A stretch of DNA of 64,000 nt from [Candidatus Thermochlorobacteriaceae] bacterium GBChlB (GCA_000724175.1 JPGV01000029.1:11379-75378), one strand, 5' to 3'. Counted from the first letter of the stretch, positions 22,266-46,682 are shown. Translations and numbers: made by a program. Notes: a model not told the origin generated them from the sequence alone.

Positions 22266-22900
22266 TACTTTTTGAAGTTCTCAATGCTCTTGCGGAAAAT
22301 TCTCGCATTTTCGGTGAGTTGTTCAAAATCGTGGTCGGCGATTGCCTTCGAATCGAGCAGTGCGCCGCCAATGCCGACCGCACAAGCCCCTGCGGCGAGC
22401 CACTCGCCCGCGTTGGTCAGCGTAACCCCGCCCGTCGGCATCATGTTGATATTCGGCAAAGGCGCACGAACAGATTTAAAAAACTGTGTTCCAACCACTT
22501 CGGCAGGAAAAACTTTCACCACATCTGCGCCGTGCGTCCAAGCCGTGTAAATTTCCGTCGGTGTCATCGCGCCAATCATCACGGGAACATGGTGGCGATG
22601 TGCAAGTTCAATAAGGTCAAGTTTTAAGACGGGCGTAACAAGAAAGCGTGCGCCATTCTCAATCGCCGCAAGCGCGTCGGCTTCATTCAAGACCGTGCCT
22701 GCGCCAACAAGAATTTCCTGACGTGAAGAAAGTTGTTGGATAAGACGTATCGCGTTTGGAGTTGTAAAGGTCAGCTCAATAATACGAATGCCGCCTTCCG
22801 CAATCGCATCAACAACGGGCATTATTTTTTCCGCGTCGTTCAAACGAATAACCGCAATCGCCTTGTCAGAAAAAATTTTTTGAAGCGTCTGTTCTCTCAT
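22265..22900 (-). CDS. eda: KDPG / 4-hydroxy-2-oxoglutarate aldolase
   Basis: 211 aa. AVIRLNDAEK, GGIRIIELTF, GAGTVL, Schiff-base Lys context VKVFPAE, PTGGV. Confidence 0.9.
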   Translation of the reverse strand: MREQTLQKIFSDKAIAVIRLNDAEKIMPVVDAIAEGGIRIIELTFTTPNAIRLIQQLSSRQEILVGAGTVLNEADALAAIENGARFLVTPVLKLDLIELAHRHHVPVMIGAMTPTEIYTAWTHGADVVKVFPAEVVGTQFFKSVRAPLPNINMMPTGGVTLTNAGEWLAAGACAVGIGGALLDSKAIADHDFEQLTENARIFRKSIENFKK

Positions 22901-22906
22901 GTCGGT

Positions 22907-24313: not shown

Positions 24314-24338
24314 GGTGCTTGTAAAATTAATTGTTGGA

Positions 24339-25853
24339 TTAAAGCGTAACGCCCTCTTTCCAGATAGCGATTTCGCGGTAGCCGTTTTTTTCGTTGTTGG
24401 TGCGTGTGTTGCCTGAAGCAACGCTTAAAATGAACTCCACAAAATTTTCTGTGAGCGATTCCAATGATTCTCCTTCGAGAAGCGCGCCCGCGTTGAAATC
24501 AATCCAGTTGGGTTTCTTTTTGGCGATGTGGCTGTTGGAAGAAACTTTGATGGTTGGAACGGGGAAGCCGAGTGGCGTGCCGCGTCCTGTTGTGAAGAGA
24601 AGGAGTGTTGCGCCGCTGGCGGTTTCAGCGGTAGAAGAGACGGCATCGTTGCCCGGCGCGTTGAGCAAGGCGAGTCCGCTTTTTGTAACCAGCTCGCCGT
24701 AGTCTAAAATTTGCGTAACGGTTGCGCCGCCGCCTTTTTGAATTGCGCCAAGCGATTTCTCTTCAAGCGTTGTAATGCCGCCGCCTTTGTTGCCGGGCGA
24801 CGGATTTTCATAGACAGGTTGATGATGCGCGATGAAATATCGCTTGAAGCGGTTAATCATCTCAACCAAGCGTTGAAATGTTTCGGTTGAGTCGCAGCGA
24901 TTCATCAAGAGATGTTCCGCACCGAACATTTCAGGGACTTCGGTCAGAATTGCGGTTCCGCCTTGTGCCGCGAGAATATCGGAGATACGACCGACGAGCG
25001 GATTTGCCGTAATACCTGAAAATCCGTCCGAGCCGCCGCACTTCATGCCAATCACCAAATCGGACATTGGACAAACTTCGCGAACATCGCCTTTCATCTC
25101 ATCAACCAATTCTGCAACGAGCGCAAGCCCCGATTCAATTTCATCTTCAACCTCTTGCGAATTGAAAAAGCGAAGCCGCGATTCATCAACGCCGTGAGCA
25201 ACGTGCAAGAGTGATTTGAGTTGATTATTCTCACAGCCGAGACCGATAACAAGCACGCCGCCTGCGTTTGGATTGCGCATCAAGCCTGCAAGAACTTTTT
25301 GTGTGTTTTCTAAATCGTCGCCGAGTTGCGAACAGCCGTAAGGATGCGAGAACGAAAACACGCCATCGATAATGCCCCGATAGGTGTCGCTGGCGCGTTT
25401 GGCAATTTGCTCGGCAAGTCCGTTGACGCACCCAACGGTGTTGATAATCCACACTTCGTTGCGCGTTCCAACGCGACCGTTTTTTCTCCGATAGCCTAAA
25501 AAAGTTTTGCCAATAAACTTCTCCGCAAAAGCAGGCTTTGGTGACAGCGATTGATGAAACGAGTAAGCAAGTTCGCCGCTCAATGCGGTTTTGAGATTAT
25601 GACCATGAACCCAAGCCCCAAGCGGAATTTCAGCCGTTGCTATGCCAATTTGATGACCGTATTTCATAATTGGCTCGCCTGCTTTAATGGTGCGAAGCGC
25701 GACTTTGTGTCCCGCAAGAATTTCCTCTTGAACCAACAGTCGCCGACTTCCGACGGTGAGTTCATCGCCAAGCGCGAGCGGCACAACAGCGACGGCGACA
25801 TTATCGAGCGAATGAATTTGCACGGCTTGAATGCGCATTTTTGTTTCGGTCAT
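24339..25853 (-). CDS. uxaA: altronate dehydratase
   Basis: Start moved to MTETKMRIQAVQIHSLDNVAVAV (ATG at 25853). An N-terminal SAF domain, then GYRRKNGRVGTRNEVWII, GLGCE, MKCGGSDGFSGITANP. Confidence 0.9.
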   Translation of the reverse strand: MTETKMRIQAVQIHSLDNVAVAVVPLALGDELTVGSRRLLVQEEILAGHKVALRTIKAGEPIMKYGHQIGIATAEIPLGAWVHGHNLKTALSGELAYSFHQSLSPKPAFAEKFIGKTFLGYRRKNGRVGTRNEVWIINTVGCVNGLAEQIAKRASDTYRGIIDGVFSFSHPYGCSQLGDDLENTQKVLAGLMRNPNAGGVLVIGLGCENNQLKSLLHVAHGVDESRLRFFNSQEVEDEIESGLALVAELVDEMKGDVREVCPMSDLVIGMKCGGSDGFSGITANPLVGRISDILAAQGGTAILTEVPEMFGAEHLLMNRCDSTETFQRLVEMINRFKRYFIAHHQPVYENPSPGNKGGGITTLEEKSLGAIQKGGGATVTQILDYGELVTKSGLALLNAPGNDAVSSTAETASGATLLLFTTGRGTPLGFPVPTIKVSSNSHIAKKKPNWIDFNAGALLEGESLESLTENFVEFILSVASGNTRTNNEKNGYREIAIWKEGVTL

Positions 25854-25857
25854 TGTA

Positions 25858-26946
25858 TCACAAATCAATGGTTGATAATTTTTCCCCCAGTCGAGTTGAT
25901 GTTTGCGCTTTTGCCTGTTCAAGATTTTCAGGCACAGCCTCGAAGAGCGGTATAATTTTCTCAATACCGCTTGCGTTGTTCAAGTTTGTAACACCACAGA
26001 CGACGATACACTTCTTATGATGCTTCACACACAGCGCGGCGACATTGCCAACGACCTTTCCATTCAGCGATGTCTCATCAAGTTTTCCCTCGCCCGTAAT
26101 AACCACGTCGGCATCAATGATTTTTTCCTCGAGCCTGACAGCGTCGTTTACAAGTGATGCACCAGAGACGACTTTGCCGCCAAGTGCTGCCAACGCCATT
26201 CCCAAGCCACCCGCTGCGCCGCTTCCTGCCTTGTTCCGCAGACTTTTACCAACAGCTAACTCGAGCTTATCCGCAAAGTGGGCAAGCCGTTTTTCAAACG
26301 ACTCCATTTGGCTTGGCGCGACGCCTTTTTGTGCGCCAAACATTTTCACTGCACCGCACTCGCCTAAAAGTGGATTGGTTACGTCAGAAGCAACAATGAT
26401 TTCTGGTCTTCGTTCTTGAAACACGTTGGACAAATCCACAACAGATAGTTTCTCGAGACCAATGTTTCCGCGCGGCACGTCAGTTCCGTTTTCATCGCAG
26501 AGTTTGGCGCCTAAGGCTTGCAACAGTCCTGCTCCACCGTCGATGGTCGCGCTGCCGCCGAGTCCGATGATGATTTTTGTCGCGCCGCGTTTGAGCGCGT
26601 CTTTTATGACTTCGCCTGTTCCAAAAGTTGTTGCCACATCTGGTCGAAGCGTCAATGTAACAAGCGGCAGTCCCGATGCAGCAGCTGTTTCAATGAACGC
26701 GGTTTGCGTGGCAAGCGCATAGTCGGCGTCAATGATGTCGCCAAGTGGCGCAGTTGCTTTTGTTTTCACAATCGATGCCTGAAAGGCTTTTGCCAACACA
26801 GCGACTGTGCCTTCTCCGCCGTCGGCAAGCGGCTGAACGACCGCGCGTTGTTGCAGCGCTTGTGGCAGTGCGTCTCGAATTCGGAGCGCAATGTCGTCCG
26901 CCGAAAATGTACCTTTGAAACTGTCGGGCGCAATTAGCACTTTCAT
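25858..26946 (-). CDS. glycerate kinase
   Basis: 362 aa. MKVLIAPDSFKGT, LADGGEGT, IIGLGGSATIDGGAGLLQALG, ITGEGKLD. Confidence 0.9.
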   Translation of the reverse strand: MKVLIAPDSFKGTFSADDIALRIRDALPQALQQRAVVQPLADGGEGTVAVLAKAFQASIVKTKATAPLGDIIDADYALATQTAFIETAAASGLPLVTLTLRPDVATTFGTGEVIKDALKRGATKIIIGLGGSATIDGGAGLLQALGAKLCDENGTDVPRGNIGLEKLSVVDLSNVFQERRPEIIVASDVTNPLLGECGAVKMFGAQKGVAPSQMESFEKRLAHFADKLELAVGKSLRNKAGSGAAGGLGMALAALGGKVVSGASLVNDAVRLEEKIIDADVVITGEGKLDETSLNGKVVGNVAALCVKHHKKCIVVCGVTNLNNASGIEKIIPLFEAVPENLEQAKAQTSTRLGEKLSTIDL

Positions 26947-26948
26947 CG

Positions 26949-28157
26949 TTACCAGTTAAACATTGTGCCGTCAAGTTTGCGATTGACGGGCAAGTAAGCG
27001 CGGTCGTAAGGATATTTCTCCGCTAATTTTTCGTCGTAGTCAACGCCCAAGCCCGGCGCGTCGCCCGGATACATAAAGCCTTTTTCAAACGTGTATGCGT
27101 GCGGAAAAACCGCGTCGGTTTCAGGGGTGTGGCGCATATATTCTTGAATCCCAAAATTGTTGATTGCCAAATCGAAGTGCAACGCCGCCGCCATAGTGAT
27201 GGGCGACAAATCCGTCGCGCCGTGAAAGCCCGTGCGAATGTGATAAATGCTTGCCATTGCCGCAACTTTCAACAAGTGCGTCAGTCCGCCGCCGCGCAAA
27301 ACGCTCATTCGGATATAGTCAATCAGTTGCTCTGTAAAAAGCGTGGTCATGTCGTAAATCGTGTTGAAGACTTCGCCAACCGCGAGCGGCGTGGTGGTGT
27401 GTTGTCGAATAATTCTAAATCCTTCTTGCAACTCGGCGGGGACTGTATCTTCAAGCCAGAAGAGGTGATACGGCTCGCTTTCTTTTCCAAGCCTTGCCGC
27501 TTCAATGGGCGTAAGTCGATGATGACAATCGTGAAGCAAGTGAAAATCATCGCCGTGCGTCTCGCGAATTTTCTTGAAGAGTTTCGGCGCGAAGTTCAGA
27601 TACTTTTCTGTTGACCAAGTTTGTTCAGGCGGCAGCCCCTTTTCCGCAGGCTCGTAGAAAAGTTTTCCACGCCCGACACCGTAGACACCCTTCAAGCCGG
27701 GAATGCCCGATTGTGCGCGAACCGCAACATATCCCATATCCAAATATCTGCCGACTTCATCAACGGTTTCTTCAAGCGTCTCGCCGTTGGCGTGTCCATA
27801 GACCATCACGCCGCTTCGCGATTTGCCGCCCAGCAAGTTGTAGACGGGCGTGTTGAGGGCTTTGCCTTTAATATCCCACAATGCCATATCGACAGCGGCG
27901 ATTGCCGACATCGTTACAGGTCCGCGCCGCCAATACGCACCACGATAGAGATACTGCCAAATGTCTTCAACCTGAAACGCATCGCGCCCGATGAGGCACG
28001 GAACAACATGCTCTTGCAAATAGGAAACCACCGCAAGCTCGCGCCCGTTGAGCGTCGCATCGCCAAGTCCGTAAATGCCTTCGTCTGTATAGATTTTCAG
28101 CGTGATGAAATTTCTTCCGGGCGATGTGATGAAAACTTTTGCGTCAGTAATTTTCAT
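26949..28157 (-). CDS. manD: D-mannonate dehydratase, enolase-superfamily type (ManD/RspA-like), cytoplasmic
   Basis: 402 aa. Colinear with my recollection of Novosphingobium ManD: [51 protein letters not shown]...YWRRGPV...HLLHDCHHR...FWLED...GGLTH...[15 protein letters not shown]. No signal peptide. Confidence 0.9.
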
Positions 28158-28184
28158 AGATGAAAAAGTAATGGTTGAAGATGG

Positions 28185-29729
28185 TCAGTGTTGAAAATTA
28201 AATCGATCGACTTCTTGCAGTGCGGCGACAATGCCTTTCTGAATGATGTTATTGAGATGTCGAGCAACCAGAGGGCTGAAATCTTCAAACCCATCAAGGT
28301 TCATTCCCCAAAGGTCTTGATTGACAGCAATGCCTTTTACAAATCGTATCACGTCGCTGAGGTTGTAGGGGTCAATATATTTCCATTGATGAAAAAGAAA
28401 CGGTGCGAAATCATCGTGAATGAGATAAGAGTGAACTTTCCCTTTCGCATTGAGCTGCCCGTAGACGCTTGACCCGACACATTCTACGCCACGACTGAAC
28501 CACAAATATGCCGCAAATCCAAAAAGAATATGCGTCGGAAGATGACCATGCTTTTCGTAGTATTTGCGAATGATGGGTAGAACGCGCGTCTTGAATTTTG
28601 ACGTGTATTGAAAAGTGATGTCATGAAGTTTGTGTCGGAGAAATGGATTGCGAAAACGATTCAGAACTTCGCGGGCGAAATCTTCCTTGTGGTCAATATC
28701 CAAACTCGGTAGAATTTCTTGATAGACGACACGCTCGACAAATGTTCCTAAAAGAGCATCGTTCATCATGTCAAGAACGGTCTCCTTTTCAGCAAGGAAT
28801 GCAACGGCGACTGAAATCGTGTGCGCGCCATTCAAAATGCGCAGTTTGCGCTCGCGATACGGCGTGATGTTTTTTGTGATAATGACGCTGGGAACTGCCT
28901 CTCTAAACGAACATACTTGCTCAACCATTGCGTCGCCTTCAATCGCCCAAAGGCTGTAAAGTTCAGCGCAAATGAGCAAGTTATCGATGTACCCTAATCG
29001 CTGTTGAAGTTCAAGCAGTCGTGGCGTGTCGGGTTTTCCCGGCACAATTCTATCCACGAGCGAATTGCAAAACCGATTGTGTTTCAAAAGCCACTCCGCA
29101 AAGGCATCTCCGAAATTGGCTTTCTCGGAATGTTTCAAAACATAATCACGAAGTTTATCGCCGTTGTTCTCGACGAGTTCAGTGGGAATAATGACAAAGC
29201 CTTTTTCAGGAAATTTCTGAAATCGCTCAAACAAGAATCGAGCGAGTTTGGCAGGAAAAGAGTCGGGCGGAGTGAACCGTGCAGAATCATCGGCATCATA
29301 GACCAAGCCGACTTCGGTCGTGTTGGAGACAATGAGTTCAAGTGTTGGAATCGCGGCGCATTGAAGCACTTGTTGCCAATCATCGGTTGCGGAAATCGCG
29401 CGGCTGATGGAAGCCAGAACGCTGTAACGCTCAGCTGCTTGACCTTCTTCAAGCCCCTGCTCGCAAACGGTGTAAAGTCCCTCTTGATGATTGAGCGCGT
29501 CGCCTTTACCTTTTGCGGTTGATTGCACCACAATCACGCGCCCGTTGAAGATGCCTTGATGATTTGCTTTGTCAATGAAGAAATCCGTAAAACCGCGAAG
29601 CAATACGCCTGAACCAAATTGAATGACTTTTTCAGGCAGGTCAAAAAATTCTTTTTTCGGAACGGCGATGTCGGTTCTTGCTTGAAATGACGGGTTGAGA
29701 GCGAGATTCTTATTTAGCACAACACTCAT
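28185..29729 (-). CDS. uxaB: tagaturonate reductase (altronate oxidoreductase), mannitol dehydrogenase family
   Basis: Start moved to MSVVLNKN (ATG at 29729). Colinear with E. coli UxaB as I recall it: LPEKVIQFGSGVLLRGF, SNTTEVG, FPAKLARFLFERF, IIPTELVENNGDKLR, FCNSLVDRIVPG, ILNGAHT, RFRNPFLRHKL. The track ORF's extra N-terminal MLRRYAPRND.. is translation of a repeat element. Confidence 0.85.
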   Translation of the reverse strand: MSVVLNKNLALNPSFQARTDIAVPKKEFFDLPEKVIQFGSGVLLRGFTDFFIDKANHQGIFNGRVIVVQSTAKGKGDALNHQEGLYTVCEQGLEEGQAAERYSVLASISRAISATDDWQQVLQCAAIPTLELIVSNTTEVGLVYDADDSARFTPPDSFPAKLARFLFERFQKFPEKGFVIIPTELVENNGDKLRDYVLKHSEKANFGDAFAEWLLKHNRFCNSLVDRIVPGKPDTPRLLELQQRLGYIDNLLICAELYSLWAIEGDAMVEQVCSFREAVPSVIITKNITPYRERKLRILNGAHTISVAVAFLAEKETVLDMMNDALLGTFVERVVYQEILPSLDIDHKEDFAREVLNRFRNPFLRHKLHDITFQYTSKFKTRVLPIIRKYYEKHGHLPTHILFGFAAYLWFSRGVECVGSSVYGQLNAKGKVHSYLIHDDFAPFLFHQWKYIDPYNLSDVIRFVKGIAVNQDLWGMNLDGFEDFSPLVARHLNNIIQKGIVAALQEVDRFNFQH

Positions 29730-29759
29730 ACGGAAATAGTTTAAGAGTGAGTAAAAACA

Positions 29760-29835
29760 GTCATTGCGAGGAGCGTAGCGACGAAGCAATCTCCAACGCT
29801 TCTTTTGGGGATTGCTTCGCTACGCTCGCAATGAC
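29760..29835. repeat. palindromic intergenic repeat element ('..RYAPRND../..EATKQS..' type)
   Basis: Left arm GTCATTGCGAGGAGCGTAGCGACGAAGCAATC (29760-29791). Right arm GATTGCTTCGCTACGCTCGCAATGAC (29810-29835). The arms are reverse complements apart from two 3-nt bulges in the left arm, with an 18-nt loop. Lies between the GH28 stop and the uxaB start. Confidence 0.8.
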
Positions 29836-29866: not shown

Positions 29867-31453
29867 TCACTTGTTTATCAAATTTGCTTGTTGCAAAAAT
29901 TGGTTTTTCAGAAAGTTTTTAGGCAAGAGCCACGCATTTTTTGCATCTAAAAAATTATTCATCAAGAGCGACAGCCTGCCGCTAAACGCGCCGTCGGCTT
30001 TTAGAAACGTCGCCGTATTCGGGAGCGCGGTTGAGTTTCTGATGAGGCAATCGCCCGAATCTATCAGTAAAATCACGGGGAGCGAGCCATCATCTTTTGC
30101 CTGTCGACCGGTGAAATGCTCGATTTGAATATCTCTGACTTTATTCAAGCAAAGCCCGTGTCGGTCGACGACCGTATTTTCGGCAAAGATGCTGACGCCC
30201 TGAACAGCAACCTTCTGAGCGCAGCCAATCGTGATGTGCGCTGGTATAGACGCGAAATCGACGCTGCCTTTGATGTCGCCAAGTTTGCGGTTGCCGCGCG
30301 GCTTTTTGAATGTCGAGACATCAACGCCTTGCGCAACGTGCATTGAGATGCCTTCAAGCGTGAGATGTTCAAGCGGCGCGTCGGGCTGTCCAGCGATGAG
30401 ACAGTTGCCGCGCGTCGTGATGTTGAGATTAGAAAATTTGATGTGGCGAATCTTGCCATACCTGCCGCTCTCTTCTCGCTTCTCGACATCGATGTAAATC
30501 GGGTATTCGGTGGCGTAACGCGAGCGCGTCTCTATCGTGAGATTGCTGAAATCGATATGTTCAAAAACGCCGCCATCTTTCATAAAGAGCGCGACGGCAA
30601 ATCGCGTGTTACGAATAATGCAATTTGAGAAACGACAGTGCGAGATGCGCGTGCCCGACCCAGTGCCGAGTTTGAGCGCGGCATCGTCGGATTCAATGAT
30701 GCAATTTGTAACGACGACATTCTCCGTCGGCTTGTCCTTGCCTTTGTCTCCGCCTACATCGTCGGAGAGGGCGGCATTTCTCGTGCCGTCCGAGACTTTC
30801 AAGCAAATCGCATCGTCGCCTGTCGAGATAAAGCAGTTTGAAATCATCACGTTTGAAGTGGAGGTGATGTCAATGCCGTCGGTGTTAGGCGAGCGCATAT
30901 CGTTGAGAATCGTGATGCCGTCGACAACCACGCGATTGCAACCAATGAGCGCAACGACATGCGCGGGAGAGTTTTGCAATTTCACATCGCGTATTGAGAT
31001 GTCGGTTGCATCTTCCAATAAAATCCACGGTGCCGGTCGGTCGAGCGGATTATACTTTTCGTCCCAAAACGCTTTGCCGTTGCCTTCAATGACGCCTTGT
31101 CCTGTGAGCGAAAAATTTGCAATTCCTGCGCCGTAGAGCAAGTGTTTATGCGCGCTGTCGTAGTCGGCAAGGTTTGCACTGCCCACGAGTTCGCAGCCGG
31201 CTTCGAGATGCACTCTCAAATTGCTTTTAAGAAAGAGTGTGCCTGTAAGAAACTTGCCTGCGGGAATGACAATCGCGCCGCCACCGCGCTTATCGCAAGA
31301 GTCAATCGCCGCTTGAAGAAAGCGTGTGTTGAGCGTTTTGCCGTCGCCTTTTGCGCCGAAGTCGAGCACATTCAGCGAGGGTTTCTGCGCCGAAAGGGTT
31401 GGCGCGAAGAAGCAACAGATGAAAACGCAGAAAGCCGTTTGACGTAAGTTCAT
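29867..31453 (-). CDS. glycoside hydrolase family 28 (polygalacturonase / exo-poly-alpha-galacturonosidase), Sec signal
   Basis: 528 aa. Signal MNLRQTAFCVFICCFFAPTLSAQ. GH28 motifs SPNTDGIDI and TGDDAICLK, with parallel beta-helix repeat character. Confidence 0.85.
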   Translation of the reverse strand: MNLRQTAFCVFICCFFAPTLSAQKPSLNVLDFGAKGDGKTLNTRFLQAAIDSCDKRGGGAIVIPAGKFLTGTLFLKSNLRVHLEAGCELVGSANLADYDSAHKHLLYGAGIANFSLTGQGVIEGNGKAFWDEKYNPLDRPAPWILLEDATDISIRDVKLQNSPAHVVALIGCNRVVVDGITILNDMRSPNTDGIDITSTSNVMISNCFISTGDDAICLKVSDGTRNAALSDDVGGDKGKDKPTENVVVTNCIIESDDAALKLGTGSGTRISHCRFSNCIIRNTRFAVALFMKDGGVFEHIDFSNLTIETRSRYATEYPIYIDVEKREESGRYGKIRHIKFSNLNITTRGNCLIAGQPDAPLEHLTLEGISMHVAQGVDVSTFKKPRGNRKLGDIKGSVDFASIPAHITIGCAQKVAVQGVSIFAENTVVDRHGLCLNKVRDIQIEHFTGRQAKDDGSLPVILLIDSGDCLIRNSTALPNTATFLKADGAFSGRLSLLMNNFLDAKNAWLLPKNFLKNQFLQQANLINK

Positions 31454-32676
31454 TTGTTTAGTTTTAGTTTTTCCATTTCTTTTTCATCGACCTCTAATCC
31501 GAGTCCTTCGCTCTGAGGCACGAACAAAAATCCGTCTTCGAATTTGAGCGCGCTTTTGAAGAGACCGCCGAGTTTCATCTCTGGTCTCATTCCCGAAAAC
31601 TCTTGCACCTTTGCGGCATTGGTTATCGAGGCGACCAAATTGAGCGTTGCCGCCGTTGCCAGCGTCGGGCGCGTGTTGTGCGTCATTACTTCTTTCTCGA
31701 ATGCTTCACCCATTGAAGCGATTTTTTTGCACTCCGAAATGCCGCCGCACTTTATCACATCAAGATTTAAGCAGTCAGGATTGCCGATGGTGATGAGGTC
31801 GCGGAATTGCCACTTGTTGTATTCATGTTCGCCCGCATTCACCTCGCACGGCAACGCCTCGACGACTTGCCGCAAGCCGCGATAATCCATACTTGATACA
31901 GGTTCTTCAACCACTTTGATATTGAAATGCTCATAGAGTTTGAGCCCAAGTTCTATGGCTTTGCCGGCGGTGTAGCCGTTGTTAAAATCCACGAAGAGTT
32001 CAATCTCATCGCCGACGGCTTTGCGAATGGCTTTGATGCAGTCGTAGGTGAAGTTGAACGGCGGATTGCGGTCACGGTCGTAGAGTTGCATTCGCGCTTT
32101 GATGGTTTTGTAGCCTTGCTCGACGAACTTCATTCCTTCCGCCGCCATTTCGTCAGGCGTTTTGAACCCGCCTTTTTTGCGTCGACCGTAGCTGCCATAC
32201 ACCGCGACTTTCTCGACTTTACTGCCGCCCAAGAGTTGATGCACGGGCATTTTGAGCAAGCGACCTTTCAAATCCCAGAGCGCGTTATCGATGCCTGCCA
32301 GCGCGCCCGGCACAAAGCCTGTGTTGCCGCCCTCAAATCCTTCAAAGAAGCAATCCTTCCAGAGATGTTCAGAGTTGAACGGATTTTCGCCGATAAGACG
32401 CGGCTTGAAAATTTGCTCTACGATGGTTGCATTGATTGCCGTGAATTCGTGGTCGCCTTCGCCCCAGCCTGAAATGCCCGCGTCCGTTTCAATTTTGACG
32501 AAGGTGGCTTTTTGAAGCGCATATACTTTGACGTTGGTAATTTTCGCGCCTGATTTCACATCGCCCGCCTCTGCTTGATTTTCCTTGCGTTCACGGGCGA
32601 CTGTCGTTTCAGAGAACGTTGTGCCGAGCGCGCCGAGCGCGGCGGTTTTGATAAACTGTCGTCGATTGAAAGTCAT
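31450..32676 (-). CDS. enolase-superfamily (mandelate racemase/muconate lactonizing) enzyme with twin-arginine signal peptide
   Basis: 408 aa. Tat motif MTFNRRQFIKTAALGALG. Barrel motifs ALWDLKG, LLGG, candidate metal ligands in LFVDFNNGY / VVEEPV / NAGEHEY, then LDVIKCGGISE. Confidence 0.8.
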   Translation of the reverse strand: MTFNRRQFIKTAALGALGTTFSETTVARERKENQAEAGDVKSGAKITNVKVYALQKATFVKIETDAGISGWGEGDHEFTAINATIVEQIFKPRLIGENPFNSEHLWKDCFFEGFEGGNTGFVPGALAGIDNALWDLKGRLLKMPVHQLLGGSKVEKVAVYGSYGRRKKGGFKTPDEMAAEGMKFVEQGYKTIKARMQLYDRDRNPPFNFTYDCIKAIRKAVGDEIELFVDFNNGYTAGKAIELGLKLYEHFNIKVVEEPVSSMDYRGLRQVVEALPCEVNAGEHEYNKWQFRDLITIGNPDCLNLDVIKCGGISECKKIASMGEAFEKEVMTHNTRPTLATAATLNLVASITNAAKVQEFSGMRPEMKLGGLFKSALKFEDGFLFVPQSEGLGLEVDEKEMEKLKLNK

Positions 32677-33968
32677 TGCTCAATGATGAGTTTGCGTTCT
32701 TCAAGCCGCTTGATGTCTTTTTGATAAATCGCCCTCACGGTTTCAAAAAACTCTTTTGCAAGCGCAGCATAGTTACGTCGATTAACGGCATCGACTTCCG
32801 ATTTTAATTTTTTCGGTATGACATCTTTGCCCTTCATTGCGCAGAGCAAACTTGTGGCGACGGCGGCAATGGTTTCTGCATCGCGCCCGTAGAAAATTCC
32901 CGCTTTGAGCGTTTTGAAATAATCGCCGTTTCCATATTTGAGCGCGGCGAGCGCAATCGGCACGTTTTCAATCGTGGCAATGCGAGACGGGCGACCGATG
33001 TTTGTGCCTTCGCGCAACATTTTTGGAGTCTCGATATTCTTTTGCTTCAAGAGAGCAGGAGAAAGTTGGAGATAAGGAAGAACTGCCTCACGCGTTTTAG
33101 CGGAAAACTGCTCAAAGGAATCATTCGTATCGATGGCGGCAATGACATCTTGCAGAGAAAGTCGAACGCCATCTTTGGCGACGCGAAGTGCGGTTTCAAG
33201 AATAGAGTTAATCGTACTGTTTTTGCGGAAGGCTTCGGCGAAAGCGGCGGCGTTCATTCCGGCGCACTCTACGCCGTAAGATTCGGTGTGCGCCATCGCA
33301 ATCGAGGTCGCTTCATCGTAAGCCCCAAACGCATCGCCCGCATTGACCGCGCCGACAGGCATCATAATGCCTTGAAAGCCCTCGTTAATCCAGTTGCCCA
33401 TTCCCGCATAGCGCGGCTCAATGTTATTGATGACCAATCGCTGATACACATATCGTTCAGGTTGCCACAGCGGACGCTCAAACGGCGTCATCATTTCGCC
33501 TTTCTCGGCAATCCAAACTTTTTTCCCGGTGATTTCTTTGATGTAAAACTCGGCGTAATCGTTGGCATCGAGATGGTCTTGGTGGCGCAAGTAACAGCCG
33601 ATTAAGGCTTCAAGGTTGAGCGTGTCGTCAGTGGTTCTGCCGTCGCCTTTGCCTTGTTTTTTTTCGATGTCCGATTTTTTCGTCGTCGGCAAAAAATTGT
33701 TGAAGTCCCAATTTCCGAACTGCGCGAGCGTTTGTTCAGGCAGGTTGTTTTCGACCGAGCCGCCCATTGCATCGGCAATGACGAAAGCGTAAAGTGCTTC
33801 TTCGATTTTTTCTTGAAGCAACGGCGATTGCGCAACGGCGTGCGCGCGAGTTGATGGTGTTGAAACGAAGAGACCCGCTGTGCCGAGCGAAAGCGTCTTC
33901 AAAAAATGTCGGCGCGAGTTGTTTTGAGTGTTGTTCATCATCGTGAGCGAGTTTGAGTTATTCCACAT
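32673..33968 (-). CDS. ADP-ribosylglycohydrolase (ARH/DraG) fold protein with twin-arginine signal peptide
   Basis: 431 aa. Tat motif NSRRHFLKTLSLGTAGLFV...AHA. ARH-family boxes FVIADAMGGSVEN, GRTTDDT and a C-terminal YGRDAETIAAVATSLLCAMKG. Family assigned by motif pattern only. Confidence 0.65.
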   Translation of the reverse strand: MWNNSNSLTMMNNTQNNSRRHFLKTLSLGTAGLFVSTPSTRAHAVAQSPLLQEKIEEALYAFVIADAMGGSVENNLPEQTLAQFGNWDFNNFLPTTKKSDIEKKQGKGDGRTTDDTLNLEALIGCYLRHQDHLDANDYAEFYIKEITGKKVWIAEKGEMMTPFERPLWQPERYVYQRLVINNIEPRYAGMGNWINEGFQGIMMPVGAVNAGDAFGAYDEATSIAMAHTESYGVECAGMNAAAFAEAFRKNSTINSILETALRVAKDGVRLSLQDVIAAIDTNDSFEQFSAKTREAVLPYLQLSPALLKQKNIETPKMLREGTNIGRPSRIATIENVPIALAALKYGNGDYFKTLKAGIFYGRDAETIAAVATSLLCAMKGKDVIPKKLKSEVDAVNRRNYAALAKEFFETVRAIYQKDIKRLEERKLIIEQ

Positions 33969-35277
33969 CTACAAGTTGCATTTTGGGAATGATGAGATGA
34001 AAGAGCAAGAGCGCGACGAGATACGCCGAGCCGGCAATGATGAAAATCGGCACATAACTGCCTGTCGCATCGAGAATGTACCCGACCAATTTTGCAATGA
34101 ACATTCCGCCGACCGCGCCCGCCATTCCGCCAATGCCGACGACCGAGCCGACCGCTTGTTTCGGAAACATATCCGAGACGGTCGTAAATAAATTCGCTGA
34201 CCAGCCTTGATGCGCCGCCGCCGCAAGCGAAATCAATCCGACCGCGACCCACAAGCTCGATGCTTGCGCCGCGAAGAACATCGGCACAACGCACAGCGCG
34301 CAAACCAGCATCGCAGTTTTGCGACTAAAATTGACCGTTTGTCCATTTGCCATTAACATCGATGAAATCCAGCCGCCGCCGATGCTGCCGATGCTTGCGG
34401 CGAGATAAACGGCAACGAGCGGTAATCCCATCGCCTTCAAATCCAAGCCATGTTGTTTGCTTAAAAAATCGGGAAGCCAAAAGAGATACACCCACCAAAT
34501 TGGGTCGGTGAGAAACTTTGCGAGAGAAAACGCCCAAGTCTCTTTGTGTGGAAAAAGCAACGCCCATTTGACGCTTTGAGAAGCACCATCGGCATCGCTT
34601 TGAATGTAAGCAAGTTCCGAAGGCGAACAGCGTGCGTGCGCTTCGGGCTTTTGATACATCAGCCACCACGCCACCAGCCAAACAAACCCCAACGCGCCTG
34701 TGATGATAAACGCCCACTCCCAGCCCATTGAGGAGACAATTAGCGGAACGAGAATCGGTGTGGAAAGAGCGGCGATATTCGTGCCTGAATTGAAAATCCC
34801 GGTTGCCAGCGCACGCTCTTTTTTTGGAAACCACTCCGCAACAGTTTTTATTGAAGCCGGAAAATTTGCCGCCTCGCCAAAGCCTAAGACGAATCGCGCG
34901 ATGCTGAATCCCACAACGCTACGCGCAAATGCGTGACCAATCGCAGCAACGCTCCAAACCACCACCGCAAGCGCGAAAGCAAGCCGAGTTCCAAGTTTAT
35001 CAATAACCGCGCCGACGCTGACCAGACCAAGCGCGTAAGCGACTTGAAACGCAAAGACAATGTTGCTGTAATCAATTTCGCTCCACCCCAATTCGGTTTG
35101 AAGCAAGGGTTTGAGAATGCCGATAATTTGTCGGTCGACATAGTTGATGGTGGTTGCGAAAAAGAGCAAGCCGCAAATTGTCCATCGATAGTTGCTGCGC
35201 AAGTTGTCTTGTCGGTCTATGAGCGGCTCTTGCGCTGCCGCGTCGTCTCTGAATTTTGTCTCTGTCATTGCCGCCAT
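33958..35277 (-). CDS. exuT: MFS hexuronate transporter (ACS family, ExuT-like)
   Basis: 439 aa. INYVDRQIIGILKP, AEWFPKKERALATGIFNSGTNI, WEWAFIITGALGFVW..WW.MYQKP. Colinear with the E. coli ExuT pattern as recalled. Confidence 0.8.
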   Translation of the reverse strand: MAAMTETKFRDDAAAQEPLIDRQDNLRSNYRWTICGLLFFATTINYVDRQIIGILKPLLQTELGWSEIDYSNIVFAFQVAYALGLVSVGAVIDKLGTRLAFALAVVVWSVAAIGHAFARSVVGFSIARFVLGFGEAANFPASIKTVAEWFPKKERALATGIFNSGTNIAALSTPILVPLIVSSMGWEWAFIITGALGFVWLVAWWLMYQKPEAHARCSPSELAYIQSDADGASQSVKWALLFPHKETWAFSLAKFLTDPIWWVYLFWLPDFLSKQHGLDLKAMGLPLVAVYLAASIGSIGGGWISSMLMANGQTVNFSRKTAMLVCALCVVPMFFAAQASSLWVAVGLISLAAAAHQGWSANLFTTVSDMFPKQAVGSVVGIGGMAGAVGGMFIAKLVGYILDATGSYVPIFIIAGSAYLVALLLFHLIIPKMQLVDVE

Positions 35278-35321: not shown

Positions 35322-37010
35322 TTATGCTCTGCCGAGTTGCGCCGTCAAGAGCGCCAGCCCGATAATCCCAATCACGGCAAGCGTTCCCAAAGCGAACCCC
35401 TGCACATCGACGCGATAACGTTTCAGACTGAAGGTTTTGCTTAGCGACAACAAATCGACCAAGAGCAATCCGTGACCGTTGTCTTCGAGCGATTCTGTTT
35501 TGACCGCATTCGTCGCCGCAACCGAATCGCCCGCCAGCATCACTGCAATGCCTGCTTCTTTGAGTTTGTATTCTTCGCCGACGGGCGTGTGCAAGAGCGT
35601 GTAAAAATCGTTGAGTTTTTTTTCGGATTCAGGTTTTGTCAAGAGACTTGCCGCAATGAGCGAGAGAAACCCAAGCGGCAGGTAAAGCGCAGCTTGATAC
35701 TCTAACGACCACTCCATCGCGCCGGTGATGAACGATGCGCTCGCGGTTACAATCACCGACACCCACGCGCCGACCGCGTTGGCGCGTCGCCAAATCACGC
35801 CCATCCAAAATGCAATGCCCAAGAATGCCATAATTTTCCAAACGAGTTTCAAGCCCTCGACCACCGACGGAATGAGCAAGGCGACCGTTACGCCGAGCGC
35901 GACAATGCCGACCGAACTCAGGCGCGCCACACGGAGCGACTCCGATTCGGATAACTCTTGGTTGAAAAATTTTTGATAGAAATTTCGCGTGAAGAGCGCG
36001 GAGCCGGCAATCATATACGCATCGCACGCTGAGACGACCGCCGCGACCATTGCGGCAATCATTAGCCCGGTAAAACCAACGGGCAAGAGCCGTTGCACCG
36101 CCGCGCCGAAGGCTTGTTCTCGATTCGGAAGCTCCGAAAAAATCGCCGCAAGCAAGACGCCCGTGAACGCCCAACCCAGCGTTGCAAAGCGTTTGATGAA
36201 CGTGCCGAACGTCCAGCCGCTTCGACAACTTTCTTCGGTTTTGCCCGCGCCGTTGATTGCCATGTGGTGCGGATAGACGACAATTCCAACCAGCCCGTTG
36301 ATGACGGACATCACGATAAAGAACAGCGTTACTTCGTTTGGCGCAACGAGGCTGAACATTTCGTCAGGCAATTTTTCGCGCACTGCCGCCAAGCCGCCCG
36401 CCGCCGACAGCGCAAAGGGAATGAGCAAAAATGACAACACGAGAATCAATAGCCCTTGAACAAGTTTTGTGCCTGCCGACGCCGCCAAGCCGCCGACCAA
36501 ACTATACGATAAAAAAAATGCCACCATCAGCGCGACCGTTGCTTCTGTCGTGATTGCGCCGTTGGTGATTGCCGAAATCGTAACGCCCGTGCCTTTGAGG
36601 ATAATCCCGATTTCAACCGCGAAGTAACACAGTCCCGCAACCGCGTATGCCGCCGACATTGAGACGCTGTAACGCTGCTCGAAAAAATCGCCGATGGTGA
36701 TGTATCGAAGGCGTCGATAAATCGGCGCGATAATCCAAAAAAACGGCGTGGCGAAAATGTAGAGCCATTGATACCAAATGCCCGCAAGCCCGACTTGATA
36801 CGACGCGCCGACGACCGCCACCACTTGGTCGGTTCGCGTTCCCGCGCCGAAGGCTTGCGCAACCATCATTATTTTTCCAAAACTGCGTCCGCCCATAAAG
36901 TAATCGCCGCTCGATTTCACCGCGCTCTTCGCTCTTAGCCCGACATAAATCGTGATGCCGAAATACGCCGCAATGATGACAACATCGATTGGATTCAATC
37001 CGAACATCAT
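35322..37010 (-). CDS. sodium:solute symporter family (SSF) transporter
   Basis: 562 aa with about 13-14 hydrophobic helices. DYFMGGRSFG near the N-terminus is typical of SSF. Substrate unknown. Confidence 0.8.
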   Translation of the reverse strand: MMFGLNPIDVVIIAAYFGITIYVGLRAKSAVKSSGDYFMGGRSFGKIMMVAQAFGAGTRTDQVVAVVGASYQVGLAGIWYQWLYIFATPFFWIIAPIYRRLRYITIGDFFEQRYSVSMSAAYAVAGLCYFAVEIGIILKGTGVTISAITNGAITTEATVALMVAFFLSYSLVGGLAASAGTKLVQGLLILVLSFLLIPFALSAAGGLAAVREKLPDEMFSLVAPNEVTLFFIVMSVINGLVGIVVYPHHMAINGAGKTEESCRSGWTFGTFIKRFATLGWAFTGVLLAAIFSELPNREQAFGAAVQRLLPVGFTGLMIAAMVAAVVSACDAYMIAGSALFTRNFYQKFFNQELSESESLRVARLSSVGIVALGVTVALLIPSVVEGLKLVWKIMAFLGIAFWMGVIWRRANAVGAWVSVIVTASASFITGAMEWSLEYQAALYLPLGFLSLIAASLLTKPESEKKLNDFYTLLHTPVGEEYKLKEAGIAVMLAGDSVAATNAVKTESLEDNGHGLLLVDLLSLSKTFSLKRYRVDVQGFALGTLAVIGIIGLALLTAQLGRA

Positions 37011-39727
37011 TCAATGCCGCCTTTCTCATCTGACTTTTTCAGTTTCATTGCTCGATGCGGCGGCTCGCCGATGATGTAGTCGATTTTTAATTGGTCGGTT
37101 GCTGAATCGCCGCGCTTCGTTCCCTTTGCCGTAAAGACGTGTTCGCCTTCGCTCCACTGCACATTCCAAACAAACGTCGCTTTTTGCACGCCGAGCGATT
37201 TGCCGTTGTGAAAGAGTTCAAGGCTGTCGCAATTTGTAAATACCCGTAGAGGCTTGATTTCATTGGGCTTTCCAAAGAGTCGCGTTCTCGTGTGCGAGAC
37301 GATATACGCCATCGGCTTTTGCGACCACTTGCTCTGGTATAAATAGTAAGCATCTTTTGGAACGCGCTTGTAATCGACCAGCCCTTTTTCGTTGATGCGC
37401 GGAATGTTGCCTTGCTTGGCGTGCGAGGCAAAGTCTGCGCCGTTCCAGACCGCGCCGCCCGCAATCCACTCGCGCTCGCCAAGTTGTTTCAAATATCCTT
37501 CGTGAAATTTCACTTGATAGGTTTCGCTGAAATCCATTCGCTGCGGGTCATCGACGTGAAAGCCGCGTTTGCCGTCCGCGCCGTATTCGCTGATAAGAAT
37601 TTTCCAATGCGGGTGCAAACGATGTTCTTCGTCCATAATTTTTCCGAAGTCTTCAATCATGCGTTGATACCAGCCGGAATATCGATTACGCCCAACCACG
37701 TCGGTCAGGTTCATCACCGATGTATCAGCGAGCGTATTTTGTGCTTGAATCGTGAGCCGCGTCGGGTCTTCCGATTTAGCGAGCGCGTGCAATTCGCCGA
37801 TGAGTTTCAGACAGAGCTTCAAATCCTCGTCGGTCAGCCAAGGCTCAATGGTTTCATTGGCGACGCCCCAGAAAACAATCGACGGATGGTTTCGGTCTCG
37901 CCGAATCAACTCGCGGAGCATTGTTTTCGTGTTTTCAAAAAACTGTTCGCGCCCAACGGAATTGACATAAGGGATTTCGGTATAAACGATAATGCCGAGC
38001 CTGTCGCATTCGTCGAGCATTGATTCATCGTGCGGATAATGCGCAAGCCGAACAAAGTTTATTCCCATTGCTTTGAAGAGCCGCAGGTCTTGAACGCGCA
38101 CGGAGTCAGGGACAGCATTGCCGTAGCCGAATCGGTCTTGATGCAAATTCACGCCGCAGAGTTGCAGTCGCTTGCCGTTGAGAAAAAATCCTTTATCGGC
38201 GGTAAACTCGAACCAGCGAAATCCGATGTTTGTCGTTATCTCGTCAAGCGCGGGCGCGCGGTTGCCCGATTCCATCTCGGCTGTGTCATAAATGCGCGAC
38301 ACAACTTGATACAGCGCGGGCGATTCGGGCGACCAGAGCGCGGGATATGCTATCTCGGCAACACTCTGCGTAAATAAATGCGTTTGGAATTTCTCGACGG
38401 TCGCCGTTGTCGTCATTGTCGCAACGATGTATCCCTCGGGCGAAATAAGGTTTGTTGCGAGCGTGAGCGTTTTCGTTTCGCCGTCGTTTCGAACTTGCGT
38501 AACGGCGTTGAGCGAGGCGGCGGATTTCGAGACGGCGGGCGTGGTTATCGTAACGGACTCGATGTGCGTGTTGTTAGTGATGTGCAATGAGGCTTCGCGG
38601 GTCAAGCCGCCGGGCATATTGAAGTCGCCGACGTGCGGCGGAATATCGGGCGAATAGGCGTTGTTTACTTTTACGGCAATCACATTGGGTTTGCCGAACA
38701 TAAGTTTATCTGTTAGGTTAAATTTAAAATTCAGAAATCCGCCAATGTGCTTTCCAAGCGGTTTTCCGTTGAGCCAAACTTCCGCCGTTTGGTTTGCGGC
38801 TTCAAATTCAATCCAAAGTTTTTTTCCATTGGCGTCGTCGGGCGGCGTGAAAGTTTTTCTATACCAAGCGTCGCCGCGATAGTAATTGGCGTAGATGTCG
38901 AGTCCGTCGTTGAGATTGCGGTCGTCGTATTGGTCGGTTGCGTTCCACGTGTGCGGCAGGGCAACGCGCTCCCATTTTGAATCGTTGAACCCGACGCTTT
39001 CGGCGTTCTTCGGATTGCCCGTTGTGAATTTCCACTCTTGCGTAAAGTCGATTCGTCGTCGGGCGGGTTTGGTTGGAAAAGCGAGCGGTTGCCACTCGTT
39101 CATTTTTTCGCCGTGCGAAATTTTGAGCAGTCGCGCGTCGCCTGCGCCAAGCGAATAGACGAGCCGCCGCGCCGCGCCGAAAACAGATTTATCGATGAGA
39201 ATCTCGACGCGCTTTTTTTCGGTCGTTGCAATGAACAAAATGACTTCCTCGTCTTTGCCTTCGCCGTTTTCAAATGCGATGTGAAAAGCATTCGATTGCA
39301 CAAGGGCGGTGATGTCTTTTCGTGCTTTCACGCGCCGAAGGCTGCTGCGGATGTCGCCTTTGAAGTTGGCATAGACATAGCCGTCCATCACAAACGCGCT
39401 GAATGCGCCTTTTGGGTGCGGAATATTTTTCGCGGCAATCCATCGCCAGTCGGATTTCAGCGCAGGCTTCAAAATGAATTTTTCGCCCAAGTCTTCGATG
39501 CCGAAGTAGGGAATCGTTTTGATGTCTTTGCCCAGCAGCACTTGGTTTTCTTTGGCATCAGGCGTAAAAAATTGCGTTTGGGGAAATCCAACAACGGGCA
39601 AAAACAGAAACACTGATGCCGCCCACAGAACGGCAAGGCAGTCCAAAACAGCCTGTAAAATCAATGGTTTTCGGCTGACCGTCTTTTCTGTGGTTGATGC
39701 GCGGCTCATATTTTTTTTCTTGCTCAT
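37007..39727 (-). CDS. glycoside hydrolase family 2 enzyme with N-terminal membrane anchor and ~230-aa extra N-terminal domain
   Basis: 906 aa. The GH2 sugar-binding region (WERVALPHTWNA...YYRGDAWYRKTF...LWIEFEAANQTAEVWLNG), the TIM barrel NFVRLAHYPH, acid/base VFWGVANE and nucleophile region LISEYGADG. Confidence 0.85.
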   Translation of the reverse strand: MSKKKNMSRASTTEKTVSRKPLILQAVLDCLAVLWAASVFLFLPVVGFPQTQFFTPDAKENQVLLGKDIKTIPYFGIEDLGEKFILKPALKSDWRWIAAKNIPHPKGAFSAFVMDGYVYANFKGDIRSSLRRVKARKDITALVQSNAFHIAFENGEGKDEEVILFIATTEKKRVEILIDKSVFGAARRLVYSLGAGDARLLKISHGEKMNEWQPLAFPTKPARRRIDFTQEWKFTTGNPKNAESVGFNDSKWERVALPHTWNATDQYDDRNLNDGLDIYANYYRGDAWYRKTFTPPDDANGKKLWIEFEAANQTAEVWLNGKPLGKHIGGFLNFKFNLTDKLMFGKPNVIAVKVNNAYSPDIPPHVGDFNMPGGLTREASLHITNNTHIESVTITTPAVSKSAASLNAVTQVRNDGETKTLTLATNLISPEGYIVATMTTTATVEKFQTHLFTQSVAEIAYPALWSPESPALYQVVSRIYDTAEMESGNRAPALDEITTNIGFRWFEFTADKGFFLNGKRLQLCGVNLHQDRFGYGNAVPDSVRVQDLRLFKAMGINFVRLAHYPHDESMLDECDRLGIIVYTEIPYVNSVGREQFFENTKTMLRELIRRDRNHPSIVFWGVANETIEPWLTDEDLKLCLKLIGELHALAKSEDPTRLTIQAQNTLADTSVMNLTDVVGRNRYSGWYQRMIEDFGKIMDEEHRLHPHWKILISEYGADGKRGFHVDDPQRMDFSETYQVKFHEGYLKQLGEREWIAGGAVWNGADFASHAKQGNIPRINEKGLVDYKRVPKDAYYLYQSKWSQKPMAYIVSHTRTRLFGKPNEIKPLRVFTNCDSLELFHNGKSLGVQKATFVWNVQWSEGEHVFTAKGTKRGDSATDQLKIDYIIGEPPHRAMKLKKSDEKGGIE

Positions 39728-46560: not shown

Positions 46561-46682
46561 AGTTTTCTTGGAAAAAGTTGAACAAGTTTTGTTGATACGT
46601 CTTTGTTGCCTTGTCTTCTCCGCGCTGCTTCCCATGCCAACGCGGTAACGTTGTTTTTACTTACGAGACGATTTGGACGACG

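Follow-up and report, generated by a model that had tools for sequence, protein, structure and literature searches.

A stretch of 64,000 nucleotides of DNA from [Candidatus Thermochlorobacteriaceae] bacterium GBChlB (GCA_000724175.1, JPGV01000029.1:11379-75378), hereafter called the window, carries on its minus strand a single gene cluster in which a gene of the ADP-ribosylglycohydrolase (ARH) family with a twin-arginine translocation (Tat) leader was located (Table 1). Read from the regulator end, the cluster consists of genes for a regulator, a beta-glucuronidase, a TonB receptor, a BNR propeller, a Tat-leadered protein of unassigned family, the enolase-superfamily (ENS) enzyme ENS 2, an exported glycoside hydrolase (GH) of family GH2, a sodium:solute symporter (SSF), a major facilitator superfamily (MFS) transporter, the ARH, the second enolase-superfamily enzyme ENS 1, a GH28 enzyme, tagaturonate reductase, ManD, a glycerate kinase, a UxaA-like dehydratase, UxaC, 2-keto-3-deoxy-6-phosphogluconate (KDPG) aldolase and a 2-keto-3-deoxygluconate (KDG)-type kinase. 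The ARH has exactly the sequence of KER09560.1, which is deposited in GenBank as a 'hypothetical protein'. All strings quoted in an earlier interpretation of this DNA (hereafter the sequence-only reading) were found in it, namely SRRHFLK at residues 18-24, AHA at 42-44, FVIADAMGGSVEN at 62-74, TTDDT at 112-116 and GRDAET at 361-366.

Assignment to the ARH family, as proposed in the sequence-only reading, was confirmed with the hidden Markov model PF03747, which matched residues 58-386 at 103.9 bits (cutoff, 26.2) over profile positions 2-286 of 287, and which was present in all listed homologs. Scanning against NCBIfam returned no model besides a Tat-signal domain; with PF03747 the only match in Pfam, no GH family of CAZy was represented in either scan, and the protein, if a glycosidase, would represent a new family. 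A single-sequence phmmer search of PDB gave no match, which places the protein remote from the characterised ARHs. When a profile built on 44 homologs of the window ARH was used instead, MJ1187 (E 2.8e-14), ARH3, DraG, Tri1 and a Thermus ARH-related protein were retrieved with three boxes aligned (GDAMG..E with GDALG..E, G-R-x-T-D-D-T with W/Y-T-D-D-T, and Y-G-R-D-x-E-S/T with G-G-D-T-D-S/T). The AlphaFold2 (AF2) model (mean predicted local distance difference test score (pLDDT), 90.6; predicted TM-score, 0.87) has a nearly all-helical body, preceded by about 40 disordered N-terminal residues of low pLDDT and followed by a long C-terminal helix. A Foldseek search of the PDB with this model gave 58 matches at E ≤ 1e-3, with ARH structures at probability 1.0 and 12-19% identity; 48 of the 50 matches listed were ARH3, MJ1187, DraG, Tri1 or the Thermus protein, and the other two (8xks_Q and 8xqw_G, at ranks 1 and 4) were the ARH-fold subunit of the chloroplast Ycf2-FtsHi motor.

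The positions of the metal site were then compared column by column among 44 sequences. D66, E73, D114, D115 and D363 were invariant, position 113 was T in 41 sequences and S in 3, position 365 was E in 31 and D in 13, and position 366 was S in 31 and T in 13. Residues E73 (the catalytic Glu), T113, D114, D115, D363, E365 and T366 are the counterparts of E41, T76, D77, D78, D314, D316 and T317 in the numbering of ARH3, and all three boxes, as the sequence-only reading had expected, could be aligned to the corresponding positions of MJ1187, ARH3 and DraG. The same reading had pointed out that the third box is GRDAET rather than the usual GGDxDT; this departure is real, the string being aligned to GGDTDS in MJ1187, GGDTDT in ARH3 and GGDADT in DraG. 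Its change from D to E is conservative, and its change from G to R at 362 is specific to the clade. Since D363 is invariant and positions 365 and 366 are restricted to E/D and S/T throughout the clade, GRDAET is to be regarded as a conservative, clade-wide form of GGDxD[ST] and not as a sign of a degraded metal site. By these alignments the protein is a genuine member of the ARH superfamily in which the ligands of the two-metal site are intact.

Three solved relatives were used for closer comparison. ARH3 (ADPRHL2), a hydrolase of Ser-ADP-ribose, poly-ADP-ribose and O-acetyl-ADP-ribose, has the all-alpha fold and the metal and catalytic positions in common with the window ARH at 13-17% identity, whereas the central substrate-binding region could not be aligned; in most of the clade the second acidic ligand of the third box is Glu, and the Gly before its first Asp is replaced by Arg. 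ARH3 is intracellular and serves signalling, while the window protein has a Tat leader, is predicted to be periplasmic and is encoded in a sugar-acid operon. MJ1187 (PDB 1T5J), an uncharacterised archaeal protein, is the closest solved relative by profile and gave the highest target-normalised TM-score (0.78); it shares the GDAxG..E, K-G..TDDT and G-x-D-x-[DE]-S boxes but is leaderless and only 313 amino acids (aa) long. DraG shares the fold and the dimetal (Mn) site, with boxes I and III aligned; it differs in being cytoplasmic, acting on Arg-ADP-ribosylated NifH and being regulated by PII, and the window offers no nitrogen-fixation context. Compared with the solved ARH chains, the mature domain of the window protein is about 45-60 residues longer, with the long C-terminal helix seen in the model.

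According to the sequence-only reading, the ARH gene lies between a Tat-ENS gene and exuT and overlaps both. The gene order stands, and so does the overlap on the ENS side, where the start of ENS 1 overlaps the ARH stop by 4 nucleotides (nt) in an ATGA (GAG CAA TGA over ATG ACT), an arrangement by which ENS 1 is predicted to be translationally coupled to the ARH gene. On the MFS side there is an overlap, of 11 nt, only when translation begins at the first ATG. An ortholog of 90% identity (P0001) begins at the equivalent of M11, and a start at 33941 (M10) or 33938 (M11) would leave a gap of 16-19 nt to the MFS gene; either of these codons may be the true start. 'ExuT' is an approximate label for the MFS protein, because its best model was TIGR00893 (D-galactonate-transporter subfamily) at 260.6 bits, below the cutoff of 395. 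The Tat motif lies downstream of every candidate ARH start (first ATG, M10 and M11), and the only Met beyond the leader at which translation might otherwise begin is inside box I. A misplaced start, and with it a cytoplasmic ARH, was therefore ruled out by this position of the next usable Met together with the conservation of the leader.

The leader itself, including its end at AHA, was as the sequence-only reading had described it. The Tat-signal model TIGR01409 matched at 18.1 bits (cutoff, 16.7), and the twin-arginine motif is followed by a mildly hydrophobic h-region (LSLGTAGLFV) and by A-H-A at residues 42-44. As a control for chance, long open reading frames (ORFs) of the window were screened for a strict Tat motif; only 3 of 53 had it, and these three (ARH, ENS 1 and ENS 2) all belong to the cluster described here. 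Tat-like leaders of the R-[RK]-x-F-[LI] type were found in 34 of the 40 closest homologs, and one seemingly leaderless homolog (P0097) proved to be a truncated gene call, the extended ORF of which reaches a Tat leader. Many homologs at 45-50% identity have Sec-type leaders, and below about 43% most are leaderless. Neighbour joining grouped the exported proteins into a single clade that lies within the leaderless ones, except for two proteins with doubtful leader calls (P0050, leaderless within the exported clade, and P0113, Sec-like outside it).

Leader sequences seem to have been exchanged within the clade. In L001 (related loci and homologous proteins are denoted by L and P numbers), which encodes an ARH of 85% identity, the DNA of the ARH leader is about 85% identical to that of the leader of the adjacent ENS gene (L001:10001-10130) and is unlike the leader of the window ARH (compared with window 32530-32676(-) and 33800-33968(-)). 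Because the leader of the L001 ARH matches that of its neighbour, leaders appear to have been swapped between neighbouring Tat genes, and the pattern looks like leader exchange or gene conversion. The Tat route is not obligatory for the ARH fold, since sister lineages use Sec-type leaders; what is apparently conserved is the export compartment, and not the route or the leader sequence. The precursor encoded in the window is accordingly predicted to be exported to the periplasm, with Tat as the probable route in vivo.

Table 1. Coordinates in the window of the ARH gene, its elements and the surrounding uronate cluster.
Feature	Position	Strand	Basis or remark
ARH-family gene	32673..33968	minus	431-aa precursor, ATG start; PF03747, AF2 model, Foldseek
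Tat leader peptide, residues 1-44, predicted cleavage after A-H-A	33837..33968	minus	TIGR01409, low pLDDT, ortholog conservation
Twin-arginine motif S-R-R-H-F-L-K, residues 18-24	33897..33917	minus	sequence
Metal/catalytic box I, FVIADAMGGSVEN	33747..33785	minus	profile alignments to MJ1187, ARH3 and DraG; column composition
Metal box II, TTDDT	33621..33635	minus	profile alignments and column composition
Metal box III, GRDAET	32871..32888	minus	profile alignments and column composition
Tat-leader ENS 1 (MR/MLE, galactonate-dehydratase-like, unassigned)	31450..32676	minus	Pfam MR_MLE_N/C, weak TAT_signal match
Tat-leader ENS 2	39724..40941	minus	leader MMNRREFLR
ACS-family MFS anion transporter (ExuT/DgoT/GudP-like)	33958..35277	minus	Pfam, NCBIfam
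Sodium:solute symporter (SSF)	35322..37010	minus	Pfam, NCBIfam
GH28, polygalacturonase- or rhamnogalacturonidase-like, Sec signal	29867..31453	minus	Pfam, NCBIfam
Exported or anchored GH2, LacZ4-type, beta-glucuronidase-like, below cutoff	37007..39727	minus	
Unassigned 347-aa protein, Tat-type leader MNRRDFIV	40942..41985	minus	listed ORF runs to 42114
BNR/sortilin-type beta-propeller, type IX secretion system (T9SS) sorting tail	42217..43530	minus	homologous propellers adjoin ARH genes elsewhere
TonB-dependent receptor	43585..46635	minus	
Beta-glucuronidase, equivalog level, without signal peptide	46683..48584	minus	NF007538, 595.7 bits (cutoff, 544)
GntR-HTH/LacI-type sugar-binding regulator, cluster head	48702..49868	minus	
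Cytoplasmic hexuronate catabolism	21252..29789	minus	tagaturonate reductase, ManD, glycerate kinase, UxaA-like, UxaC, KDPG aldolase, KDG kinase

The polysaccharide setting proposed in the sequence-only reading holds, and genes for hexuronate catabolism, GH28, GH2 and beta-glucuronidase lie in the same cluster. ENS 1 carries the leader motif NRRQFIK and has 5OLC as its nearest structure; like acid-sugar dehydratases and cycloisomerases, both ENS proteins have D/E/E metal ligands and the motifs of an Asp-His dyad, and both scored below every equivalog cutoff of NCBIfam. The beta-glucuronidase, having no signal peptide, is predicted to be cytoplasmic. Standard glucuronate and galacturonate catabolism is fully encoded in the window even when the ARH and the two exported ENS proteins are left out of account; the only PfkB kinase, which adjoins the KDPG aldolase gene, is like KDG or 2-keto-3-deoxygalactonate (KDGal) kinases and gave no match to ribokinases. 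The locus includes a TonB receptor, and no SusD-family match was found among its annotated genes, so that the cluster does not conform to a SusC/SusD-type polysaccharide utilization locus; the genes next to the receptor encode the T9SS-tailed BNR propeller and the unassigned Tat protein, for which no match was found in Pfam, NCBIfam, PDB sequences or PADLOC and no homolog in the related loci. The T9SS sorting tails encoded in the cluster agree with an origin in Candidatus Thermochlorobacteriaceae.

Relatives of the ARH were encoded in 339 stretches of GTDB species-representative genomes. Because only 26 clusters matched at E ≤ 1e-30 in a representative library of 1.84 billion proteins, the clade is regarded as small. 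For the neighbour census, 80 GTDB loci were scored for an ENS gene within 8 kb of the ARH gene; leaders in these loci were called heuristically, gene calls in the high-GC loci were crude, and the leaderless loci were counted by family only. An ENS gene lay within this distance in roughly 10 of about 17 exported-ARH loci and in 0 of 62 leaderless loci, the former figure being the scripted count of 9 of 17 after correction by hand, because L011 and L013 had been mis-scored and a few of the 'exported' calls are probably spurious. In the loci of the closest homologs the ARH gene stands beside one to three ENS genes (three in the cultured Fulvivirga sp. M361), nearly all of them Tat-leadered, and loci combining Tat-ENS and ARH genes extend over Cytophagales, Kapaibacterium, Fulvivirga, a verrucomicrobial-type contig, Woeseiaceae and other Pseudomonadota. 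As judged from this gene neighbourhood, the Tat-exported ENS enzymes form the conserved core of the system and the tightest partner of the ARH.

An obligate pairing of ARH and ENS was ruled out by a reciprocal search, in which orthologs of ENS 1 (70-72% identity) were found in an equivalent architecture (regulator, UxaB-like protein, GntP, glycerate kinase, ENS 2, ENS 1 and GH2) with no ARH gene nearby. In another locus the ARH gene survives as a remnant (L091:8302-8886) that covers residues 19-202 only, at 63% identity; a deletion has removed the C-terminal half together with the third metal box, and the flanking ENS, GH2 and GH28 genes are intact. From the ENS orthologs without a nearby ARH gene and from this remnant, the ARH is considered an accessory of an ENS-centred system. 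Non-orthologous replacement of the ARH was also considered and set aside, as the ARH-less loci gave only an unannotated lipoprotein of about 540 aa (L097), which was not interpretable.

An accessory of the ENS core could also be a protein without catalysis, i.e., one that binds sugar in the periplasm or serves the ENS enzymes as a scaffold, comparable to the inactive ARH2 or to the ARH-fold subunit of the chloroplast motor, and the best Foldseek matches do include this non-enzymatic subunit (8xks_Q and 8xqw_G). We consider such a role very unlikely: throughout the clade, even at 33% identity, every metal ligand and the catalytic Glu have been kept, which is unexpected for a pseudoenzyme, and the Tat route suits the export of a folded, metal-loaded protein.

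Whether signal-bearing ARH homologs are enriched in loci for carbohydrate-active enzymes had been raised as a question in the sequence-only reading. GH28, GH2 and a TonB receptor recur in L001, L003, L007, L010, L011, L012 and L013; the tightest partner, however, is the ENS enzyme, and L006, L008 and L029 carry the ARH-ENS genes with no GH. In these three loci the accompanying genes encode a WD40-type propeller, class II aldolase, Dak1/Dak2, HAD, IclR and a MOFRL-type glycerate kinase, with transporters of the GntP, DASS or LctP type.

Loci of this kind would suit an ARH that acts as a lactonase, or as another ring-opening hydrolase or isomerase, on a five-membered sugar-acid lactone or furanoid ring in the periplasm and thereby feeds acid sugar, in open-chain form or in the right configuration, to the ENS enzyme, which as a dehydratase or cycloisomerase would then make a 2-keto-3-deoxy acid in the classical order of lactonase and dehydratase. 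With this would agree the close and conserved partnership with ENS genes, which are often adjacent or translationally coupled, as would the presence, among the solved structures closest to the ENS partners, of ring-opening cycloisomerases (5OLC and the 1RVK/4HCD galactarolactone cycloisomerase group); two types of glycerate kinase and the dicarboxylate, GntP and LctP transporters nearby would likewise fit a pathway of the aldonate or aldarate type. Against it, no conserved lactone-generating periplasmic oxidase was found (L003 alone has an FAD oxidoreductase), and closely related ENS loci do without the ARH, contrary to expectation for an indispensable pathway step. Moreover, we know of no ARH-fold lactonase, and the leaderless relatives are found in oligosaccharide-type ATP-binding cassette (ABC) operons without ENS genes. 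Ring opening by the ARH is thus rated as unlikely, though deserving of some weight; since the module has no conserved periplasmic oxidase beside it, the full route from oxidase through lactone and lactonase to dehydratase is retained as a rival and no more.

The leaderless relatives (Chloroflexota, Streptomyces and Planctomycetota) share the clade-specific invariant residues and sit in operons with LacI and CUT1-type sugar-ABC genes, usually with a second, larger ARH paralog and sometimes with GH94/GH116 or PfkB genes. Eleven Chloroflexota loci, including L067 (L067:8848-9933), L061, L086, L087, L080 and L078, encode a leaderless BNR propeller of about 361 aa a short distance upstream of the ARH gene, directly adjacent to it in most and, in several, with the second ARH paralog in between. 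A larger BNR protein (about 1065 aa) is often encoded in the vicinity; in a twelfth locus (L081) it is the only BNR protein and lies farther from the ARH. T9SS-tailed relatives of the smaller propeller are carried by the window (42217-43530(-)) and by L010, and for all propellers the 'F510_1955 family glycosylhydrolase' was the top NCBIfam model, below its cutoff. From these sugar-ABC operons and propellers in the wider-family survey, the whole ARH family is seen to live among genes for carbohydrate uptake.

Carbohydrate uptake might also take the form of ribose scavenging, in which an exported ARH would free ribose or ADP-ribose units from extracellular NAD-derived, ADP-ribose-derived or ribofuranosyl compounds. 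All canonical ARH metal and catalytic positions are kept, as this would require, and the sugar-binding domain of the cluster's regulator scored best against RbsR-type models, far below their cutoff. A precedent exists in the ribose-utilisation (rus) loci of Bacteroidetes, where uncharacterised ARH genes are predicted to encode hydrolases that release ribose as a nutrient (10.1101/574913). The likeness lies in ARH-family genes within TonB-receptor nutrient loci of Bacteroidota that are read as nutrient-releasing and not as signalling; the difference is that rus loci contain ribokinases, a ribose permease and nucleoside hydrolases, whereas the partners in the window are Tat-ENS, GH28, GH2 and uronate catabolism. 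No ribokinase match and no nucleoside hydrolase was found in the window locus, which sets it apart from the rus loci, and no ribokinase, nucleoside hydrolase, phosphatase or ribose transporter was found in the window locus or the related loci. The PfkB kinase beside the KDPG aldolase is KDG-kinase-like, and the conserved partners are ENS enzymes, GH28, GH2 and acid-sugar transporters. Identity to characterised ARHs is 13-19%, with a central region that cannot be aligned with that of ARH3 or DraG. Scavenging of ribosyl or ADP-ribosyl units is for these reasons held to be improbable.

The presence of Tri1 among the structural and profile matches raises yet another reading, that the ARH reverses toxin-borne ADP-ribosylation in the periplasm (as a Tri1-like immunity protein) or forms part of a defence system, and an IetA-like AAA ATPase is encoded about 16 kb away. 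A PADLOC search of the ARH gave no match at E ≤ 0.01, so that membership of a defence system was not indicated, and no ADP-ribosyltransferase or toxin gene is adjacent. More generally, no genes for ribose salvage, defence or ADP-ribosyltransferases were found. The ARH gene is instead coupled within a catabolic operon, in a setting conserved across phyla, and we regard immunity or repair as extremely improbable.

The substrate is most likely of a carbohydrate type rather than an ADP-ribosylated protein, and the reading given an even chance here is that of a periplasmic dimetal hydrolase acting on an acidic glycoside or furanoside-like sugar. The repurposed glycoside-type hydrolase suggested in the sequence-only reading has gained from comparative genomics (Tat-ENS, GH28, GH2, TonB receptors and sugar-ABC operons) and is put forward here as a candidate function. 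We infer catalytic activity, the type of bond cleaved and the class of substrate as follows. A soluble ARH-fold enzyme with a two-metal site of the Mg/Mn type would be exported by Tat, probably in pre-folded form, and its leader would be removed after A-H-A. The exported clade would have been recruited to acid-sugar (uronate) utilisation loci fed by TonB receptors, where the ARH would act beside one to three Tat-exported ENS enzymes and often GH28 and GH2. In ARH enzymes such as ARH3 and DraG, the dimetal centre grips the 2'',3''-diol of ribose; in the same manner, that of the window ARH may grip the vicinal diol of a sugar ring, and hydrolysis would then take place at the anomeric carbon of a sugar residue that is anionic, like a furanoside or unusual in some other way. 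Imported oligosaccharides or glycosides that contain uronate would bear such residues. Their removal, as an accessory 'debranching' step, would free material, or make it accessible, for GH28, GH2 and the periplasmic ENS enzymes, and the acid products of these enzymes would be taken up through the adjacent MFS and SSF transporters.

Several points weigh against this periplasmic glycoside-type hydrolysis. The metal site is fully canonical and would be compatible with the usual chemistry on ADP-ribosyl or alpha-ribofuranosyl groups; the central region, where substrate is bound, has no sequence alignment to ARH3 or DraG, and a pocket for ADP may have survived there; and nothing in the ARH sequence points to a particular sugar. 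The GH-free ARH-ENS modules (L006, L008 and L029) fit a small-molecule substrate, or lactone or ring opening ahead of ENS, as well as they fit debranching. The ARH is missing from several otherwise equivalent loci and is thus not essential to the ENS system, and a few of the 'exported' leader calls among the GTDB loci are probably spurious, the classification being heuristic.

A wider proposal can be made tentatively, and we think it somewhat more likely wrong than right: the exported ARH clade would found a new metal-dependent family of the GH type that has abandoned ADP-ribose chemistry and, together with the first periplasmic ENS enzymes, would form an unrecognised periplasmic route for acidic sugars or decorated uronate glycans. 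Such a route would be spread over the Bacteroidota/Chlorobi group, Verrucomicrobiota, Gemmatimonadota and Proteobacteria. To our knowledge, ARH-fold enzymes are known almost solely as intracellular erasers of ADP-ribosylation, and enolase-superfamily enzymes are classically cytoplasmic. If the proposal is true, the ARH fold would be extended to carbohydrate chemistry and could define a new family of carbohydrate-active enzymes, and the ARH with its Tat-ENS partners would suggest that pectin-like material, glucuronides or microbial-mat exopolysaccharides are broken down by way of a periplasmic step so far unexplored. Tat-exported periplasmic enzymes of non-hydrolytic glycan breakdown do exist, e.g., in the 3-keto-glycoside route of Bacteroidota, in which cofactor- or metal-dependent enzymes of normally cytoplasmic families are likewise Tat-exported; the families and the chemistry are unrelated, and the likeness is one of analogy only.

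Literature searches for ARH together with Tat, polysaccharide utilisation, carbohydrate-active enzymes, GH or TonB yielded the preprint on rus loci and otherwise nothing of relevance, with no description of the clade or of its ENS partnership; no paper retrieved for the source genome dealt with this locus, and searches for the enolase superfamily together with twin-arginine gave no description of periplasmic members, most subscription journals lying outside the coverage of these searches. The compartment, the partners and the probable substrate of the ARH are accordingly presented as new, a prior description being possible given that coverage.

Some further observations were made in the related loci. 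A lipoprotein-like protein of about 540 aa with no Pfam match accompanies a TonB receptor or ENS genes (L010:6036-7640, L091:5247-6914, L097:5175-6848, L100:8327-9949, L101:2608-4269 and L016:1029-2633), and it may be a SusD substitute or a surface glycan-binding protein. Glycerate kinases of two unrelated types (GlxK/TIGR00045, and DUF4147 with MOFRL) recur in the window (25858-26946(-)), L011, L095, L097-L100, L019 and L029, alongside acid transporters of the GntP, DctA, DASS and LctP types, and hint at glycerate or a small di- or monocarboxylate as a pathway product.

In the window, the AAA ATPase ORF (49758-51239(+)), about 16 kb from the ARH gene, was matched to IetA by PADLOC (E 1.2e-29) and is possibly a defence gene; as listed it overlaps the 5' end of the regulator gene by about 110 nt, which places its true start probably at an internal codon. 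Far-upstream TTG starts likewise cause overlaps with neighbours in the listed ORFs 24339-25964(-), 46683-48584(-) and 22907-24421(-), and the UxaA-like ORF overlaps the glycerate kinase gene (25858-26946(-)) by about 107 nt. Since the family-model matches begin 20-50 residues into these TTG ORFs, their true starts are probably internal Met codons.

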